A stretch of 11,747 bases of DNA. It comes from a virus. Taxonomy: Duplodnaviria; Heunggongvirae; Uroviricota; Caudoviricetes. The translations under genes were made by a program, and so were the position numbers. The stretch lies in IMG/VR virus record IMGVR_UViG_2671180828_000003; one strand, given 5' to 3'. The notes under the pieces are model-generated. The model did not search any database, was not told the DNA's origin, and saw only the letters and a program-made list of their open reading frames with translations. Position 1 is the stretch's first letter. Every line of letters begins with the position of its first letter. Below are positions 1 through 7,342 of this stretch, piece after piece.

Positions 1-259
1 TACATGAGAAGAATAAGCTATAGGTCTTTCTTTTAAAGTTTTATTTATTGCATTAGTGCCTTTATCTTTTTGTACTTTGTAGGTAGTGGAAGTAAAGGTA
101 ATGAAAGGAAGAAAAGAATGAGCTGCAACAGCTCGAGGGTTTGTTACTATGTCTAAAGCGTGTTCAATGGAAATTGGCTTATCGAAATGAAGATAACCAC
201 GCTTCCTAAACCAAGGATGTTCACGGGATTCCATTTTGTGAATTCTCAAAATTGTGAAA

Positions 260-305
260 CCGGGGCAATTTCGAACTGCGGTCGTTCAGAAAAACATTGC
301 CCCGG
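260..305. repeat. Perfect 10-bp inverted repeat with a 26-nt spacer holding a nested 4-bp hairpin
   Basis: CCGGGGCAAT (260-269) and ATTGCCCCGG (296-305); the spacer contains GAAC-tgcggtc-GTTC. On the minus strand it is followed by TTTCACAATTTTG. Confidence 0.6.
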
Positions 306-394
306 CTTAACAAAGTGGTCTTTATCCAACCTTCTCATACACATAGCACTACAAGTAGGCTAAGTGCATTTCACCGCAAATGTTAGAAACACTG

Positions 395-400
395 TATAAT
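395..400 (+). promoter_or_regulatory. Consensus -10 hexamer TATAAT (candidate plus-strand promoter)
   Basis: Exact TATAAT in an AT-rich context, preceded by TG at 393-394; no good -35 (TTTCAC lies 20 nt upstream). About 15 nt upstream of GGAG and an ATG. Confidence 0.25.
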
Positions 401-424
401 GTAATCAGTATCATGGAGACCGTT

Positions 425-526
425 ATGAGCATCGTCCACCTGTTAATCAGCCTCTGGGAGGTATTCAGCGAAGGTCGCTGTCCGAGAGTTGACAACCTGT
501 ACATCACCCCTAAGCCTTACGCTTAG
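425..526 (+). CDS. Candidate small ORF (33 aa) with hydrophobic N-terminus; unknown function
   Basis: GGAG (415-418), 6-nt spacer, ATG 425; product MSIVHLLISLWEVFSEGRCPRVDNLYITPKPYA. The stop TAG lies in the 3' arm of hairpin CCCTAAGC-CTTAC-GCTTAGGG (508-528). Below the track's size cutoff; coding status unproven. Confidence 0.2.
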   Translation: MSIVHLLISLWEVFSEGRCPRVDNLYITPKPYA

Positions 527-682
527 GGCGATTAATTTATAGCATTTAGTAATGCTTAGTGACAAGTAGAATTTCAATAACATGGCCAATTTTTATATTC
601 ATAACTGTCATAATTTAAATGAGATCAATATTACTTCAGCTTATCTCCAAACTATCGATATAAAAACGATTCCGGCCCAATG

Positions 683-713
683 AGAAAGCCCCGCATATGC
701 GGGGCTTTCTTTT
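683..713. terminator. Strong hairpin terminator between ogr and the AT-rich flank, possibly bidirectional
   Basis: AGAAAGCCCCGC-ATAT-GCGGGGCTTTCT, a perfect 12-bp stem. The plus strand follows with TTTGG (T-tract TTTCTTTTGG); the minus strand follows with CATTGG (weaker tract). Starts 3 nt after the ogr stop. Confidence 0.7.
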
Positions 714-715
714 GG

Positions 716-937
716 TCACTGCCAGTGCATTTGTTGCTGGCCTGAAGATGAAGGGTGCGGTGCCGCTGGTACTACAACCCCCGGCGATACGATAAAGCGC
801 TCGACCGTCTCAGTGGTAACAAACGTCGCGCTGCAGTTGATGTTTGTGCACTGGTGATAGCGCTCTTTGGTCGTGTCAGTAAAATAGCGACTTGTGCGGG
901 CGTGAGCGGCAAAATGGCATTTTGGACAGTGAAACAT
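716..937 (-). CDS. ogr: Ogr/Delta-family zinc-finger late transcription activator
   Basis: 73-aa product MFHCPKCHFAAHARTSRYFTDTTKERYHQCTNINCSATF... with a CxxC...CxxxxC motif, matching my recollection of P2 Ogr (72 aa). ATG at 937..935 has a GAGGTG Shine-Dalgarno 6 nt upstream; the track ORF starts at GTG 946, which I consider a less likely start. Sits immediately downstream of D as in P2. Confidence 0.85.
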   Translation of the reverse strand: MFHCPKCHFAAHARTSRYFTDTTKERYHQCTNINCSATFVTTETVERFIVSPGVVVPAAPHPSSSGQQQMHWQ

Positions 938-964
938 GGCGAGCACCTCATTTATTTTCCGATG

Positions 965-1000
965 CGCTAATTTTACTCAATTTATCTTTATATAACAAAC
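965..1000 (-). promoter_or_regulatory. Candidate sigma70-type promoter for ogr in the AT-rich D-ogr gap
   Basis: On the minus strand: TTGTTA (993-998), a 17-nt spacer, then TAAAAT (970-975), about 30 nt upstream of the ogr Shine-Dalgarno. No hairpin separates D from ogr, so read-through from the FI operon is also possible. Pattern match only. Confidence 0.35.
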
Positions 1001-1013
1001 ACATAAAAATAAA

Positions 1014-2183
1014 TCACTGCGTTAATTCTTCGCTTTCGTACTCCACATCCGAAACCTTAACCTCAAGCTCTAAGCCCGTCGTGTAGCCGCTCCCGTTGAG
1101 GTTATGCACCACCCTACTGATTATCCACGCCTGATCGTCTATGACACGCTTAAACCCTTTCACCGCGACTGGCGTTTCAGGAAATAAATCTGCCCGGCCA
1201 ATCGCCAGCGAAATTGAAAACTCCGCGACACCTCGCTGCAGCTTGTCCCACTTCGCCTGAGCGGCGCGCATGGCCTGCGCCTTTGTCGCGTAAATGGTCG
1301 TCAGCTCCAGCACGTTGTCAGCCTCACCGGCCATATACTCACCCTCGCGCGCTTCCTGCTCTTTTTTGGCTATGGCCTTTGCCGGTGCTTTGGTCGCTTT
1401 CGGGTGCTGCAGCGCGCGGAGGTGTTGCTCTTTGGGCTTTCTCTTGAGCTTCACCTTTTGCTTTTGCGGCTTTGGGTCTTTGGTGTGCAGCCACTTTGCC
1501 GTAACGCCGGTGTAGGCTTCCCGGTCAGCAATGGCAAACTGATGACGATCGCCGTCCCCGCGCTCAAGCGTCATCTGCGGAATGGGCTTTCCGCTGGCAG
1601 TCTTACCGCTCCCCGCTTTCAGGAATAACAGTTTCCCTGCTTTTACCGAAACCGACGCCCCGTTCCGTTCCGCCAGGCGGGACAGAAACACCGCGTCTGA
1701 TTCCTGCGACTGGTCAATGTGAGGCACGGCGACGGCTTTCAGCATGTCGGCCACGCTGGCCGTCAGCTTATTGCGTGCCGCAATCGTCTCCACAATTTGC
1801 CCGAGCGTGGTGTCGTGCCATGACTGTTCCCGGCGAGAGTTCAGCGACCCGCGAAAATCGGCGCTTCGCCCCCGGATGGTAAGCGTATCAGGCGCGCCCC
1901 TGTGCTCGATTTCGTCGACCGTGAACGTCCCTTTTTTTATCAGCGCGGAATCCTGCCAGCCTAACCACAGCGTCAACGTTGCGCCACGCGGTGGCAAAGC
2001 TATCTGACCGTCAGTGTCATCGAGCTCGATATCGAGCTGGTCGGCCTCGAATCCGCGATTGTCGGTCATGGTCAGGCTGATAAGGCGGTTACTAAAATCC
2101 TGCGTGATATCGTCGTTATCCAGCTTGAGCATAAACGCCGGGGCTATCTTCGCCCCGGCCTGAATATTCATACCCGTAATCAT
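1014..2183 (-). CDS. D: Tail protein D (late control gene D family)
   Basis: 389-aa ORF, the last large gene of the FI-FII-E-T-U-D operon. Its ATG overlaps the U stop (ATGA), indicating translational coupling. Length and position match P2 gpD. Confidence 0.85.
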   Translation of the reverse strand: MITGMNIQAGAKIAPAFMLKLDNDDITQDFSNRLISLTMTDNRGFEADQLDIELDDTDGQIALPPRGATLTLWLGWQDSALIKKGTFTVDEIEHRGAPDTLTIRGRSADFRGSLNSRREQSWHDTTLGQIVETIAARNKLTASVADMLKAVAVPHIDQSQESDAVFLSRLAERNGASVSVKAGKLLFLKAGSGKTASGKPIPQMTLERGDGDRHQFAIADREAYTGVTAKWLHTKDPKPQKQKVKLKRKPKEQHLRALQHPKATKAPAKAIAKKEQEAREGEYMAGEADNVLELTTIYATKAQAMRAAQAKWDKLQRGVAEFSISLAIGRADLFPETPVAVKGFKRVIDDQAWIISRVVHNLNGSGYTTGLELEVKVSDVEYESEELTQ

Positions 2184-2644
2184 CCCGCCAGCCCTCCCAG
2201 CCAGTCACCGGCAGACGTGACCAGATTGTCAGCCTGCGTTTTCAGGTCGCCATAAATGGCCGCCAGCGATTTATCGACCCGCTTAAGCGAAAGGCTAAAC
2301 TCGATTTTTCTCGCCGCTCCGTCGCTGAATAGCTCGGTGTGCGTGTGCGTCACTTTGTCGATGACATACATGCCGTGGATCATGCCCGTTCCGTCAATCA
2401 GCGGCCACGCGCGCCCCTCGTCTGCCATCAGCTCGATGGCGGTCAGTGACAGACGCCCCCCGGTAATTTCGGGATAGAGCACGCCCGACAGCGTGCGCGT
2501 GGTTTCACCTTCCCCGAGATACTGGTAAGCCGGTGGCTTGCCGATACGGTCGTTTGACGCCCAGCGGTAATCCTTTGAATACTGCATGGACTGATAGGGC
2601 AGCGTGCGGCGCTCAAACACAAACAAACCTAAAACCATTAACAT
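2180..2644 (-). CDS. U: Tail protein U (tail tube terminator / tail completion)
   Basis: 154-aa product starting MLMVLGLFVFERRTLPYQSMQYSKDYRW..., closely resembling recalled P2 gpU. A GGGGGA Shine-Dalgarno sits 6 nt upstream; the gene lies 12 nt downstream of the T stop. Confidence 0.85.
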   Translation of the reverse strand: MLMVLGLFVFERRTLPYQSMQYSKDYRWASNDRIGKPPAYQYLGEGETTRTLSGVLYPEITGGRLSLTAIELMADEGRAWPLIDGTGMIHGMYVIDKVTHTHTELFSDGAARKIEFSLSLKRVDKSLAAIYGDLKTQADNLVTSAGDWLGGLAG

Positions 2645-2656
2645 GCTTTATCCCCC

Positions 2657-5104
2657 TCAGTCATGGCGCATACTTGAGCGCTTACGCGCACGGTTTTCAC
2701 GGTCGAATCTATCGACAGCCTCGCGGAGTTGCCGGTCAAGGTCGCTGCCCGGCGCGATGCCACCATTCAGGTTGATGTTATATTCAGGCTTGCTCTGGTC
2801 GACGTAAGTCTTACCAGTGGGTGCTGTTACCGGCTGATATGCCTGATAACCGCCATATGCTGAGGTTGCCGGAATATAAGCCCCATTTTGCGAGCCGGTG
2901 GCGGCACTGGCTTTAGCGGCCTTCTGGTCAAGGTCGCTCGATTCTTTATTGATAACCCCGAGCTTTTCCAACAGCCAGTTAACGCCGGTGCGCAATGTAT
3001 TAAAGCTTTTGAGCGGTAACATCAGCGCTTCGGCCAGCATCTTACCGAACATCACACCCGCATTTTTGCAGCTGTCGAGCGTCTCCTGCGTCGACTTAAC
3101 CGGGGCTATCAGGTCTTTAAACCACTGCCATGCCGCTTTCAGTTTGTCACCCAGCCAGTCAAAAACCGGCTTTAACGGTTCGAATAGTTCCACTACAGGG
3201 GCAAAAGCCTGCTTTAGCCCCTCCATTACGCCTGAGAAAAACGCGCTTATGGGCTCCCAGTATTTGCGGATAAGCAGCGCACCGGCGACGATGGCAACGC
3301 CAATAGCCACTATCGGCCAGGTAAGCGCCCCGAGCACGGCCATAATGGCACCACCCACCACCGAGAAAATCGTTCCTAGCAGCGATGCACCGGCTATTAA
3401 CATATTAATGCCGGTAATAACCGGCCAGGCAACGAGACCAATTGCCCCGAGGATGCCAATAATTGCCAGTGCACCGCCTGCGATGATGCCGATGGTTTGC
3501 GCCAGCCCCTGATTTTTCTGGATCCAGCCGTCGAGCTTTAACACATATTTCGTGGCGGTCTGGGTGAGCTTTCGCAGTGAGCCCTCCTGCTGGTCAAACA
3601 GGTCAGTACCGACGGCCTCATAGGCTGACTGGAATTCTTTGAAGTCACCGCCGAGGTTGTCCTGCATAATTTTAACGAGCTCAGCGGTTTTCCCGTCCGA
3701 GGCTTTAAACGCCGCCGTGAGCTGGTCGAGCTTGCCGCTTGAGGCAGCGGTCATCAGTACCGCCGCCGCCGAGCTGGCTTCCTCACCAAAGATGGTTTTC
3801 ATGTACTCGCCTTTCTGGCTTGTTCCGAGATTATTTTTCTCAAAACTGCGCTGCATTTCTTTCAGAATGGCGAATATCGGGCGCGTGTTGCCCTTGCTGT
3901 CAGACGTTTTAACGCCGAGCTCTTTGATAGCCTCGTATGCCTTACCGGTCGGAGCCTGCAGGCGACTCAGGACGGCACGGCTGCCCGTCCCCGCCATCGA
4001 GCCGGTGATTTTGGCGTCATGGAGCGCGCCGACCATTGCGGCGGTCTGCTCGATACTGACCCCGGCATTTTTTGCCACCGGCGCAGCATACGTCAGCGCG
4101 TCGCTCAGCCCGTCAAAGTCAGCAGCCGTTTTGTTCATGGTCATCGACAGCACGTCGCCGATGTGTGCGATCTGGTCGTTTGACATCTGAAACGCGGATT
4201 TCATACCCGTCAGCAGCGCGGCGTTTTCTTCCATCGAGCGACGGTTAGACAGCGCCATATTCAGCGTGACCGGCGTCGCCGCCTGAATCGCTGCGGCATC
4301 CCCGCCGCTTTTCGCAATGATAATCTGCGCGCTCGCCGCATCATCTGCAGACGCAGCGGTATTATCCCCGAGCTGGCGCGCCTGTTTGCGCAGCGCCTCC
4401 ATTTCGGGTGACTGTTTATCAACGCCGAGCACGGCCTGCAGCTCAGAGTTTTTCTGTGCAAACTCATAACCGGGCGAGAGTAATTTCACTCCGGCCATTG
4501 TTCCCGCAGTGGCGATACCGACGCCCGCCGCGCCTGCCGCTGCAGCGCCTCCGGCAAGGGATTTACCGGCCTGATAACGCTCTTTAACGCGACTGAGTCG
4601 CGCCTGCTGTTGACTGACCCGCGCCAGTGCCTCGCGCTGCCGGTTAAGTTGCGCGGTCGTCTCACTGATGCTGGTTTTCAGGCGGCGCTCATCCGCCGAG
4701 AGAGTACGGGAGTTAATCCCGGCCTGCGCGAGCTCGGTGCGCTGGCGCTGTACCGACTGCCTGAGGCTGTTGTATTTGAGCTGCAGGTCAGCGGCGGATT
4801 TCTTTGCCGCCTCCATCGCGCGCGCCTGCGCGGTTGTAGGGTTCTGCGTGTTTTTAAACTGGACGGCCAGCGCGGCGGCTTCCTGTTTCGCCTTGTTAAG
4901 CGACTGGCCTGTCACGGCAAGCTGTGCGCTCGCTTTCCTGAATCCGTCAATTCGTCCAGCCTGCGCATTCAGATCGCGCAGGCTGTTCTGAGAAGTGCGG
5001 ATATCGCCAGCAAGGGTCTTGCTGGCAGTCTGGATAGCTTTGAGCGGTCGGCTTGCCCGGTCTACTGCGTTCAGCAGTACCTCAATCCTGACGTTATTGC
5101 TCAT
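2657..5104 (-). CDS. T: Tail tape measure protein
   Basis: 815-aa ORF. The N-terminal half is rich in A/Q/R/L/K, consistent with coiled coil; a Gly/Ala/Ile-rich hydrophobic segment sits mid-protein. It follows E/E' and precedes U, the canonical tape-measure position. Confidence 0.9.
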   Translation of the reverse strand: MSNNVRIEVLLNAVDRASRPLKAIQTASKTLAGDIRTSQNSLRDLNAQAGRIDGFRKASAQLAVTGQSLNKAKQEAAALAVQFKNTQNPTTAQARAMEAAKKSAADLQLKYNSLRQSVQRQRTELAQAGINSRTLSADERRLKTSISETTAQLNRQREALARVSQQQARLSRVKERYQAGKSLAGGAAAAGAAGVGIATAGTMAGVKLLSPGYEFAQKNSELQAVLGVDKQSPEMEALRKQARQLGDNTAASADDAASAQIIIAKSGGDAAAIQAATPVTLNMALSNRRSMEENAALLTGMKSAFQMSNDQIAHIGDVLSMTMNKTAADFDGLSDALTYAAPVAKNAGVSIEQTAAMVGALHDAKITGSMAGTGSRAVLSRLQAPTGKAYEAIKELGVKTSDSKGNTRPIFAILKEMQRSFEKNNLGTSQKGEYMKTIFGEEASSAAAVLMTAASSGKLDQLTAAFKASDGKTAELVKIMQDNLGGDFKEFQSAYEAVGTDLFDQQEGSLRKLTQTATKYVLKLDGWIQKNQGLAQTIGIIAGGALAIIGILGAIGLVAWPVITGINMLIAGASLLGTIFSVVGGAIMAVLGALTWPIVAIGVAIVAGALLIRKYWEPISAFFSGVMEGLKQAFAPVVELFEPLKPVFDWLGDKLKAAWQWFKDLIAPVKSTQETLDSCKNAGVMFGKMLAEALMLPLKSFNTLRTGVNWLLEKLGVINKESSDLDQKAAKASAATGSQNGAYIPATSAYGGYQAYQPVTAPTGKTYVDQSKPEYNINLNGGIAPGSDLDRQLREAVDRFDRENRARKRSSMRHD

Positions 5105-5557
5105 GGTGGTGTCCGCTTCGCTGCAGCGCCTTTTCGCGCCATGTGATGAGCTCGGTCACGCTCAGGGAATTCAGCTCTGATGGCGGCCAGTGAAATATCA
5201 CCGCGATATCCGCCATCAGGTCATCGACCGAAAGGTTGTCCGGGAACGTCAGCGAGCCGAAGATGGCGACAAAAAACCGACCACCTTACCGGCGAACAAA
5301 ATCAGGTCTGATGCTTCCAGACGCATGACCTCGGGCTCGGTCAGCGCCGGGTACGTCATGCGCGGCAGCACCTTAATCAGCGCATCGACGTCAGAGTTTG
5401 CCAGCGAGGCCAGACTCACACCGCGCAGAGTACCGGCGTTGGGTTTGGACACGGTCACCTGTTCGATTTTTTGCTCACCGCGCATGATTGGATTATCGAG
5501 GATCACAATGTTTGGGTTTTCGGTTTCGATGGTGGCGGTTTCGTTGATGTTTTCCAT
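5094..5557 (-). CDS. E': E+E' fusion product made by programmed -1 ribosomal frameshift (about 154 aa)
   Basis: Hand translation of the -1 frame after the heptamer at 5270-5276 gives an open extension VAIFGSLTFPDNLSVDDLMADIAVIFHWPPSELNSLSVTELITWREKALQRSGHHHEQ, ending at TAA 5096..5094, which overlaps the first codons of T. Confidence 0.7.
5249..5557 (-). CDS. E: Tail assembly chaperone E
   Basis: 102-aa ORF directly upstream of T. Its 3' end contains the slippery heptamer T_TTT_TTG, the P2 E/E' arrangement. Confidence 0.85.
   Translation of the reverse strand: MENINETATIETENPNIVILDNPIMRGEQKIEQVTVSKPNAGTLRGVSLASLANSDVDALIKVLPRMTYPALTEPEVMRLEASDLILFAGKVVGFLSPSSAR
5270..5276 (-). other. Slippery heptamer T_TTT_TTG (programmed -1 frameshift site)
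   Basis: Minus-strand sequence GG TTTTTT G; in the E frame the codons are GGT TTT TTG, giving the X_XXY_YYZ pattern, 22 codons before the E stop. Confidence 0.7.
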
Positions 5558-5617
5558 GATGTTGCTCTCTTTGAATGTGAGTAAGTGACCGGCCAGCCTG
5601 GCTGACCGGTTAACGGG

Positions 5618-6136
5618 TTACAGGCCAATCGCCCGGCGGTGCTCAGCGAGACGGTCAACGCCGTCGACTTTCATCACCATGTTGACGACGTCAATCTCGA
5701 TGACCTCTTTGCCGTCAATCGTGAGCTGGTAATACGAGCACTCGGTCGCGATTTTGGTCGTGCCGCTTTCGCCCTGTTTGTTCTCGCCGCCGTCGTACTC
5801 CTTGTGACGGCCACGCATGACCACCTCAACGGCGGAAATTGCGCCGGTATCATCGCGCTGGAATGAGCCGGTGAAGCGCAGCGGCACGCTGTCGGCACCC
5901 GGTGACGCATACTGCGCCCACAGCGCGACGTCAGGCAGGCCGCCCAGCGTCCACTCAAGCGACAGCGCGTCGTCGTCGAGGCCGAGGTCAATAGACACCG
6001 AGCCCGGCATCCCGCCGCCGCGATATTTCTCAAGCTTGCGGGTCAGCTTTGGCAGGGTGACGGATTCAACGACGCCCATGTAGCTGAGACCGTCGTTAAA
6101 CATGTTCAGGTATTTCAGTTTGCGTGGTAACGCCAT
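5618..6136 (-). CDS. FII: Tail tube protein
   Basis: 172-aa product MALPRKLKYLNMFNDGLSYMGVVESVTLPKLTRKLEKYRGGGM..., strongly resembling recalled P2 gpFII (also 172 aa); lies directly downstream of the sheath gene. Confidence 0.9.
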   Translation of the reverse strand: MALPRKLKYLNMFNDGLSYMGVVESVTLPKLTRKLEKYRGGGMPGSVSIDLGLDDDALSLEWTLGGLPDVALWAQYASPGADSVPLRFTGSFQRDDTGAISAVEVVMRGRHKEYDGGENKQGESGTTKIATECSYYQLTIDGKEVIEIDVVNMVMKVDGVDRLAEHRRAIGL

Positions 6137-6148
6137 GCTCTGAGCTCC

Positions 6149-7342
6149 TTAGCTGTTGACCGAGTCTGACAGGTCTGCCAGATAGGTATCGGTGATGCGC
6201 TGGCGCAGGGTCAGGTTTTCCAGCGGCGGGACGGGGGTGTAGTCGTAATCGATATACAGTTTCCCGGCTTTGAGGGTTTCCACGCTGTTTGACTCCGGGT
6301 CGTACCAGCAGGAGCCGTCAACGATATAGCCGTTGTTTTTCAGCTCGCGGAATTTGGCATTGATACCGGCGACGATGTCGCGGATGAGCGTTGCAGAAAC
6401 GGGCTTATCCATCGCCCACGCGTGCGCTTCCGCCATCGTGTCGGCCAGCACCTGCGCCGTGCGGGTGTAGTTTTCAAACACGAATAATGGATCGTCCGAG
6501 CAGGTTCGGTTACCCCAGAATTTAAAGCCATCGTTGCGGATGAGCGTTGTCACCCCGGCCTGATTCAGCAGGTTGGCGTCGGTGGCCTGCTCCTGCAAAT
6601 CCCATGAGACCGAGGCGCTGACGCCGGTGACGCCATTCACGCCGACGTTGGACAGCGTTTTGTGCCAGCCGGTATCCTGGTCGATTCTGGCGCGCAGGCC
6701 GAGCGCGCGGGCGGTCGCCCATGCAATATCGGTTTCGTTCGCCGTGGTGTCCCATGCCAGAAAATCAGGGTGAATGACCATGAGCTCGCGCTGGCTGAAG
6801 TTCTCACGGTATTTAATGGCGTCGGAAATGGTCTTGCAGCCCCACGCGCTCACATAGCCGAACGCGCGCAGGCTCTGGCAGGTCGACGCAAGAGCGGTCG
6901 CCACTTCCTGCGTATCCAGCCCCGGCACGCCGAGAATGCGCGGCTTAACACCGGTGACGGTTTTCGCTGTTAACAGCGCTTTCAGCCCGGTGTATTTGCC
7001 GTTTTCGTCGGTCGTGCCGATGATGTTGGAAATGGTTTCTTTCTGCGCCGCTTCCGGGTCTGACGGGTCGTCGACACCTTCGGGAACGCGCACCACCACA
7101 ATGACCGGCTTGCACTGGTCGGCAATGGCCTGCAGGGATTTTGCCAGCGTGCCTTTTTTACCGGCCTTACCGATCGCCGTTTGCACGCTGGTAATCAGCA
7201 CCGGCTCGTTCAGGGGGAATGTCTTTGCGTCAGCATCGCTGGCCGTGCAGACCATGCCGATGATGGCCGTCGAGACGGTGGAAATGGTGCGCGTGCCATC
7301 ATTAATCTCGATGACCTCGACGCCGTGATGATAGTCGCCCAT
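6149..7342 (-). CDS. FI: Contractile tail sheath protein
   Basis: 397-aa product from the internal ATG at 7342 (MGDYHHGVEVIEINDGTRTISTVSTAIIGMVCTASDADA...), matching recalled P2 gpFI (396 aa). GGAG sits 8 nt upstream. The track ORF extends to 7438, but that extension runs into the promoter/terminator region and is rejected. Confidence 0.9.
   Translation of the reverse strand: MGDYHHGVEVIEINDGTRTISTVSTAIIGMVCTASDADAKTFPLNEPVLITSVQTAIGKAGKKGTLAKSLQAIADQCKPVIVVVRVPEGVDDPSDPEAAQKETISNIIGTTDENGKYTGLKALLTAKTVTGVKPRILGVPGLDTQEVATALASTCQSLRAFGYVSAWGCKTISDAIKYRENFSQRELMVIHPDFLAWDTTANETDIAWATARALGLRARIDQDTGWHKTLSNVGVNGVTGVSASVSWDLQEQATDANLLNQAGVTTLIRNDGFKFWGNRTCSDDPLFVFENYTRTAQVLADTMAEAHAWAMDKPVSATLIRDIVAGINAKFRELKNNGYIVDGSCWYDPESNSVETLKAGKLYIDYDYTPVPPLENLTLRQRITDTYLADLSDSVNS

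Follow-up and report, generated by a model that had tools for sequence, protein, structure and literature searches.

The window analysed here, an 11,747-nucleotide (nt) stretch of Caudoviricetes DNA (IMG/VR record IMGVR_UViG_2671180828_000003), carries at positions 1-565, on the minus strand, what we identify with high confidence as the 5' portion of a defence operon of the DRT2 kind (type 2 defence-associated reverse transcriptase), including its split neo gene. The locus is a further naturally occurring variant of a published system and leaves knowledge of the mechanism unchanged; our direct evidence consists of its anatomy, its conservation and covariation, and the arithmetic of a junction promoter and an open frame. 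An initial annotation had read positions 395-713 as a compact plus-strand transcription unit with a -10 box, a small hydrophobic open reading frame (ORF), an internal hairpin, a second ORF and a strong terminator, perhaps encoding a small RNA, a type I toxin-like peptide or a leader. Sequence reading and folding recover every one of these features where it was placed; absent from that annotation were three others, namely an exact TTGACA at 489-494, a minus-strand RNA and the reverse transcriptase (RT) gene at the left edge. The plus-strand signals are real but, by analogy with the published system, would work only on a complementary DNA (cDNA) concatemer and not on the chromosome.

In DRT2 systems, a non-coding RNA (ncRNA) of ~280 nt lies upstream of the RT and holds a central template of ~120 nt between two ACA motifs, which is reverse-transcribed by a rolling-circle process into concatemeric cDNA (Wilkinson 2024, PMC12039810; Tang 2024, doi 10.1101/2024.05.08.593200). 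In the cDNA sense, TATAAT and TTGACA are found at opposite ends of the template and fall 17 bp apart over the repeat junction, followed by a ribosome-binding site (RBS) and an ATG; neo is a stop-free frame, with a repeat length divisible by three, that encodes a hydrophobic, growth-arresting protein (PMC12039810; doi 10.1101/2024.05.08.593200). Rolling-circle copying, phage-triggered formation of double-stranded concatemer, Neo-dependent arrest and defence are known only for the Klebsiella system KpnDRT2 and a few homologues (PMC12039810; doi 10.1101/2024.05.08.593200). The elements assigned to DRT2 in the window, each with its basis in brackets, are as follows.

1-234, minus strand: N-terminal 78 codons of the Drt2 RT, starting at ATG 234-232 and running off the left end (NCBIfam, PADLOC, identity)
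251-529, minus strand: DRT2 ncRNA of ~278 nt, comprising 5' handle, template and 3' scaffold, with both ends inferred (conservation, Rfam, fold)
251-385, minus strand: ncRNA 3' scaffold, the RT-12 motif (full-model match to RF03016)
381-383, minus strand: ACA-2, just 3' of the template (sequence; conserved in 38 of 38 listed loci)
384-500, minus strand: template region, 117 nt or 39 codons (stop-free concatemer frame, ACA borders)
395-400, plus strand: neo -10, TATAAT (exact hexamer, lying 11 nt away from the unit's 5' end; conserved in relatives)
415-427, plus strand: neo RBS GGAG 415-418 and start ATG 425-427 (sequence; conserved in relatives)
489-494, plus strand: neo -35, TTGACA (exact hexamer, genomically downstream of the -10)
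498-500, minus strand: ACA-1, the first three template bases (sequence; conserved in 38 of 38 loci)
501-505, minus strand: left half of a basal stem, GAUGU (read from the sequence by analogy with SL2 of Tang 2024)
508-528, minus strand: 5' handle hairpin of 8 bp with a 5-nt loop (fold, covariation, G-U cells)
536-565, minus strand: ncRNA-RT operon promoter (first conserved block in 9 enterobacterial loci)

A split promoter and an endless reading frame in the template

On the minus strand, ACA-1 (500-498) and ACA-2 (383-381), located by script, flank a template of 117 nt, which is the commonest repeat length among relatives (Wilkinson 2024, PMC12039810). The RT-12 match opens with the bases of ACA-2 ('UAACAUUUGCGG'), and both ACA motifs are conserved in all 38 loci listed in the survey below. 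The two promoter hexamers stand within this unit in the reverse of the usual order: the -35 partner lies 88 bp downstream of TATAAT on the genome and comes to lie 17 bp upstream of it, as calculated by script, only when repeats are joined across the 500|384 junction. A compact plus-strand genomic unit, as the initial annotation had proposed, does not survive this arrangement, even though its TATAAT at 395-400 and its GGAG at 415-418, six nt before ATG 425, are exactly as described. GGAG begins 14 nt past the -10; the published RBS and start are described as '13 nt downstream of the -10' (PMC12039810).

When the 117-nt unit is concatenated, the frame of ATG 425 contains no stop, whereas the other two plus-sense frames contain 8 and 16 stops in four repeats; the unit thus combines a length divisible by three with a single stop-free frame in the cDNA sense. 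A second in-frame ATG at 413-415 belongs to the same open frame. The Neo unit reads MSIVHLLISLWEVFSEGRCPRVDNLLETLYNVISIMETV, 39 residues of which 51% are I, L, V, F, M, W or C, with a grand average of hydropathy (GRAVY) of +0.65, such that the RBS and start are followed by a hydrophobic repeat. The ORF at 425-526 is indeed 33 codons long (MSIVHLLISLWEVFSEGRCPRVDNLYITPKPYA*, stop TAG 524-526); its first 25 codons are the start of Neo, and its last 8 (YITPKPYA*) are chromosomal read-through into the handle. Past position 500 the tail of the genomic ORF is variable, giving 33-41 codons among close relatives, and both the tail and the stop are irrelevant. The chromosomal 33-codon ORF is an artefact of an endless frame, and neo is missed entirely by gene finders and promoter scans. 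Describing the ORF as a toxin-like small hydrophobic peptide came near the truth, in that it marks the signals and coding sequence of a putatively growth-arresting peptide, but not in making it a type I-like chromosomal gene. Likewise, a plus-strand start near 405-410 is where neo mRNA should begin, albeit with concatemeric cDNA instead of the chromosome as its source.

The alternative, in which TATAAT 395 drives a plus-strand transcript of ~300 nt from the chromosome that ends at 683-713 and acts as a small RNA, as a leader or as the message for a 33-amino-acid (aa) type I toxin-like peptide, we regard as highly improbable. It can draw on features that do exist, namely an exact -10, a good RBS and ATG, a hydrophobic peptide, and a strong hairpin whose T-run is on the plus strand, and on the finding that a single Neo repeat is already mildly toxic (PMC12039810). 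However, there is no -35 upstream of TATAAT; because of this lack in genomic order, a generic promoter scan of 200-1050 calls no plus-strand site, and the non-concatemerised Klebsiella arrangement gave no reporter expression (PMC12039810). Nor does the ORF behave as a type I toxin gene, for which one would look for a promoter of its own and a conserved, complete ORF with a fixed stop, as the stop here varies (33-41 codons). Pfam matched neither of the two 33-aa peptides. As for a leader, attenuator or small RNA, there is no downstream plus-strand gene, the next gene, ogr, being on the minus strand.

Two further observations concern the Neo repeat itself. An imperfect direct repeat of 17 nt is present at 402-418 and 444-460 (TAATCAGTATCATGGAG and TAATCAGCCTCTGGGAG), with 76% identity and an offset of 42 nt (14 codons), a pattern that may reflect a half-repeat within Neo or some structure in the template. 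In addition, a three-repeat Neo protein matches Pfam ARM_CPL3 with 34.4 bits against a cutoff of 26; the match fits the HEAT/alpha-solenoid-like fold predicted for Neo by Tang et al. (doi 10.1101/2024.05.08.593200), although it may be inflated by the repetition.

A structured minus-strand RNA upstream of the RT gene

Between the template and the RT gene, positions 385-251 on the minus strand match the Rfam family RT-12 (RF03016) over the full model (1-117), scoring 87.1 bits where the gathering score is 44.2 (E = 1.5e-15) and placing a structured scaffold where DRT2 has one; in the cryo-EM description the scaffold region forms a tower, buttress and pseudoknot (PMC12039810). This is the sole above-threshold Rfam match in a scan of 1-1200. 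No plus-strand family passed its threshold in the same scan, which leaves the small RNA, leader and attenuator proposals without a family: all matches on that strand, of which Leu_leader (30.2 bits against 50) was the best and STnc100 (27.5 against 47) another, were sub-threshold and driven by the terminator hairpin.

Upstream of the RNA, the minus strand carries an operon promoter made up of -35 TTGTCA (565-560) and an extended -10, TGcTATAAA (544-536), at a spacing of 18 nt. When the window is aligned to eight relatives from enterobacteria (9 loci in all), 'TTG...AATG(T/C)TATAAA' is the first conserved block; conservation runs from this promoter through the RNA to the RT start, and nothing aligns upstream of the -35. 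Both the RT-12 match and this conserved promoter at 565-536 lie on the minus strand, contrary to the plus-strand primary transcript proposed initially. We place the inferred start of the ncRNA at ~529, and at the 3' end the RT-12 match finishes at 251. For KpnDRT2, a single start site has been reported upstream of the ncRNA (Tang 2024, doi 10.1101/2024.05.08.593200), and the Klebsiella RNA is 280 nt long with its template at bases 29-148 (PMC12039810); the layout here matches that of the 280-nt RNA, which supports an extent of ~278 nt from 529 to 251. The 280-nt stretch folds better as minus-strand RNA (-94.7 kcal/mol, z -4.0) than as plus-strand RNA (-80.4 kcal/mol, z -2.9).

The strand is also indicated by the hairpin at 508-528, upstream of the template. 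The initial annotation saw correctly that its 8 pairs overlap TAG 524-526 but took it for a possible attenuator over the ORF stop; it is instead the 5' handle of the minus-strand RNA, an element which in the cryo-EM structure docks into the RT fingers insertion (PMC12039810). Across 34 loci, the handle reaches 94.1% paired cells, whereas shuffles give 60% and sliding the partners gives no more than 58.5%; the covariation score of 0.97, against 0.29 shuffled, is reached by 0 of 500 shuffles, and 7 of the 8 pairs show changes on both sides. With G-U cells (n = 29) considered, 94.1% are paired as minus-strand RNA and 86.0% as plus. This bears directly on the proposed chromosomal plus-strand peptide gene, as the last 8 codons and the stop of its ORF fall in the covarying handle and differ among relatives in length and sequence. 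Next to the handle, GAUGU (505-501) can pair with ACAUU (383-379), which by analogy with SL2 of Tang 2024 would bring the ends of the template together.

A generic promoter and terminator scan flagged the handle hairpin as a 'terminator', a call we reject because the hairpin covaries as a handle in the opposite-strand RNA. The same kind of scan misses both promoters as well as the hairpin at 683-713 (two scans): the ncRNA promoter because the last base of its -10 is A, the neo promoter because it is split, and the 683-713 hairpin, we think, since its stem extends into A and T runs. A sub-threshold match to the Rfam RT-6 RNA, another RT-associated motif, covers 464-530 on the minus strand (20.5 bits against 46.7) and overlaps the handle along with the template's 5' end.

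The architecture recurs among DRT2 loci

A scan of genome contigs with the single E. coli Drt2 protein found no loci; a 23-protein alignment then gave 80 DRT2 loci from species-representative genomes, to which two IMG/VR loci and an E. coli locus were added. A strict motif rule (TGT...TGT boundaries, hexamers with at most one mismatch) was applied to 83 regions upstream of Drt2 genes, comprising 82 fetched loci and the window, and found the architecture in 40. In 38 of these 40, the window included, the unit length can be divided by 3, the spacer measures 17 bp, and exactly one frame is open, its register being the same throughout. Seven unit lengths occur, all multiples of 3 (105, 108, 111, 114, 117, 120 and 129 nt), and the neo-sense frame is open in every one of the 38 loci, whereas ~27% of shuffled units are open on a given strand.

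Conservation in relatives, named at the outset as a check on the small ORF, divides it in two: the first 25 codons are conserved together with the -10, RBS, ATG and hairpin, but the last 8 codons and the whole second ORF are not. Because the -10, RBS, ATG, first 25 codons and hairpin are conserved in homologous loci, they stand above the coincidence that might be expected of AT-rich DNA.

One frame of the ncRNA-sense concatemer lacks stops as well, in each of the 9 enterobacterial loci and in 15 of the 38 in total, where ~27% would be expected by chance on a given strand. Given the relatedness of the loci we judged this excess not significant; the open frame probably follows from that relatedness and from codon usage.

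The RT and the completeness of the system

Directly downstream of the RNA and on the same strand, the ORF starting at 234 contributes 78 aa to the window, which are recognised as Drt2 by NCBIfam (NF041746, E = 5e-22) and by PADLOC (E = 1e-29) and are 87% identical to the annotated Drt2 of E. coli N921. All 78 residues are 100% identical to the N-terminus of protein P0020, a 429-aa RT of the same family in which the catalytic YCDD motif is present ('FRYCDDMLF') and whose score, 591 bits, exceeds the Drt2 equivalog cutoff of 390. P0020 is encoded on a Logan contig (ERR11457555; locus L086) that is 100% identical to window positions 1-6234 and has gpU, gpD, Ogr and RT in the same order. We consider it very likely that the DRT2 system is intact.

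By megablast against complete E. coli genomes, window positions 2-546 match three loci annotated 'drt2: antiviral reverse transcriptase Drt2' at 79-85% identity, such that a megablast-detectable relative of the DRT2 RNA and RT 5' region occurs in only 3 of 5,426 genomes; the remaining 57 matches cover the flanking ogr/gpD segment only.

Another possibility is that the locus is a decayed, inactive remnant in which the RNA and neo signals are still recognisable and function has been lost, through a truncated RT or degraded cargo at a prophage end. The window does carry merely 78 RT codons, and the cassette sits in an AT-rich junction beside a prophage end, where remnants accumulate. Nonetheless we think decay very unlikely: the identical contig has an uninterrupted RT, YCDD included, well over the family cutoff, the RT-12 match spans the full model, and the cis elements are all consensus-perfect (TTGACA, 17 bp, TATAAT, both ACA motifs, open frame and intact handle).

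Several points weigh against reading positions 1-565 as a working DRT2 operon. The RT is truncated in the window, and the case for a complete enzyme comes from a contig that shares 6.2 kb of identical sequence; synthesis of cDNA, activity of the promoter, toxicity of Neo and defence would be ascribed to this locus through homology. In the survey, the strict motif rule failed in 43 of the 83 regions; these are chiefly from distant clades, in line with Tang 2024. Among the enterobacterial loci, variable sites number 10, 9 and 15 (of 39 each) at the three codon positions, a mild third-position enrichment; protein-level selection is not shown by this codon-position skew, which we do not count in favour of coding. 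Constraints from RNA structure and from coding overlap.

The P2-like prophage flank

To the right of the DRT2 operon, the following features complete the segment.

566-682, no strand assigned: AT-rich, unconserved spacer including the second ORF at 582-683 (no alignment among DRT2 loci)
683-713, no strand assigned: hairpin of the ogr intrinsic terminator, not part of DRT2 (palindrome, fold, homology to P2-like prophages)
716-937, minus strand: ogr-like late transcription activator of 73 aa, given for context and not part of DRT2 (NCBIfam NF007241)

From 716 on, the window is the minus-strand late and tail region of a P2-like prophage, with ogr, gpD, tape measure, tube and sheath proteins. The ogr gene (716-937) scores 134 bits against a cutoff of 116 for NCBIfam NF007241, the identical gene of L086 matches Pfam Ogr_Delta, and megablast aligns window positions 685-1100 with ogr and gpD of P2-like prophages. 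As noted initially, the flank is AT-rich, with a GC content of 0.38-0.46 compared with 0.52-0.63 from about position 1000 onward.

The terminator hairpin is as strong as first described, a perfect 14+14 palindrome (683-710) of -29 kcal/mol with z = -7.2, the most stable among the window hairpins folded. The ogr stop lies 3 nt upstream of the hairpin, which is nearly as stable on the minus strand (-27.6 kcal/mol, against -29 on the plus), and homology to P2-like prophages without DRT2 starts at 685. The hairpin is the ogr terminator and marks the edge of the phage backbone; being symmetrical and having both an A-run and a T-run, it may act bidirectionally. It belongs to the P2-like backbone downstream of ogr, common to prophages that lack DRT2, and is not the terminator of a plus-strand unit. 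The second 33-codon ORF does run from ATG 582 to TGA 681-683, but it falls within the unconserved spacer and cannot be counted as a member of such a unit; it has no Pfam match, gene calling on the identical contig L086 places nothing there, and we judge it spurious. A chromosomal transcript ending at 683-713 would therefore run through unconserved DNA (566-682) to a terminator that is the phage backbone's own.

The only promoter-like site called by the generic scan in 200-1050 is on the minus strand at 970-998 (TTGTTA, 17 nt, TAAAAT), between gpD and ogr and close upstream of the latter, a position consistent with a promoter of ogr.

The DRT2 cassette starts immediately beyond the terminator of ogr (window 566-716; L086:5519-8608). 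A distant blastn search of 530-730 against phages gave matches on the terminator/ogr side only and none left of ~685, and when viral contigs were searched for exact matches to the spacer, the sole result was a near-copy of the window, likewise cut inside the RT. When Ogr and gpD were compared by tblastn with the loci fetched before L086, only L084, an E. coli P2-like prophage without DRT2, matched; L086, identical to the window, is the only other DRT2 locus fetched that lies beside ogr and gpD. At the same ogr-distal place, L084 carries a gene for a trypsin-like peptidase (L084:2376-3530). A hotspot of P2-like phages has been described at gpA-gpQ (old/tin) (Rousset et al. 2022). Perhaps the DRT2 cassette belongs to the P2-like prophage as cargo, an insertion lying past the ogr terminator and before the end of the prophage, at a variable site distinct from gpA-gpQ; we offer this tentatively, as a possibility falling somewhat short of probable. 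The cassette could equally sit just outside the prophage, beyond attR, in host DNA. Past the RT and outside the window, AT-rich DNA at L086:7290-8608 contains two terminator-like hairpins, an ORF of 76-90 aa (MKKIIVFFNSEPAVV...) and a small gene of the GnsAB family, which could be further cargo or host flank.

Proposed mechanism and comparison with known systems

Judging from KpnDRT2, the RT would bind the RNA and copy the template repeatedly in an RNA-primed rolling-circle fashion, jumping from ACA-1 to ACA-2 and so producing tandem-repeat cDNA. ACA-1 would be the last bases copied in each round and ACA-2 would receive the jumping cDNA 3' end, roles that we take from Tang 2024 and Wilkinson 2024. 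Upon phage infection, double-stranded concatemer would accumulate, and each repeat junction would set TTGACA 17 bp upstream of TATAAT to give a strong sigma-70 promoter. Transcripts of neo would then be expected to start near 407 and to be translated from GGAG and ATG 425 in the stop-free frame, and the endless hydrophobic Neo repeat protein would arrest the cell and abort infection.

By its published description, KpnDRT2 shares with this locus the order of promoter, ~280-nt ncRNA and RT, the 5' handle, the ACA-bounded template, TATAAT and TTGACA at the template ends with a 17-bp junction spacer, an RBS and ATG soon after the -10, a stop-free frame, a hydrophobic repeat and a YCDD RT. The two differ in the repeat, 117 nt (39 aa) in the window against 120 nt (40 aa) in KpnDRT2, in the RT, 429 aa here against 425 aa, and in genomic context, here the ogr-proximal end of a P2-like prophage. 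At the entry to the template, UGU directly abuts ACA-1 in the window, whereas more distant homologues have one extra base. The Rfam motif RT-12, defined as a structured RNA beside RT genes, is matched at all 117 model positions by window 385-251 on the minus strand; the model, however, covers the 3' scaffold only, and the template, handle and neo signals lie outside it.

In type I toxin-antitoxin systems, too, a short hydrophobic peptide that arrests growth has an antisense RNA overlapping it, but here the RNA of the opposite strand is a template rather than a repressor, the chromosomal ORF is promoterless, and toxicity of the characterised DRT2 homologue needs multiple concatenated repeats. 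A closer parallel in promoter logic is offered by circular intermediates of insertion sequences (IS) and transposons, in which -35 and -10 halves at the unit ends gain functional spacing only after DNA rearrangement, an analogy drawn in both papers (PMC12039810; doi 10.1101/2024.05.08.593200); the DRT2 junction differs in arising from reverse transcription of RNA and not from DNA excision.

Reading the raw sequence can pick out the expression signals of neo, and interpreting them requires the DRT2 mechanism. The window adds a DRT2 variant with a defined promoter, template and junction, beside the end of a P2-like prophage, which is useful for annotation and for the choice of homologues. If the cassette is indeed prophage cargo, P2-like phages would carry an RNA-templated, gene-synthesising abortive-infection system that excludes competitors, and the ogr-distal site would be a further hotspot.

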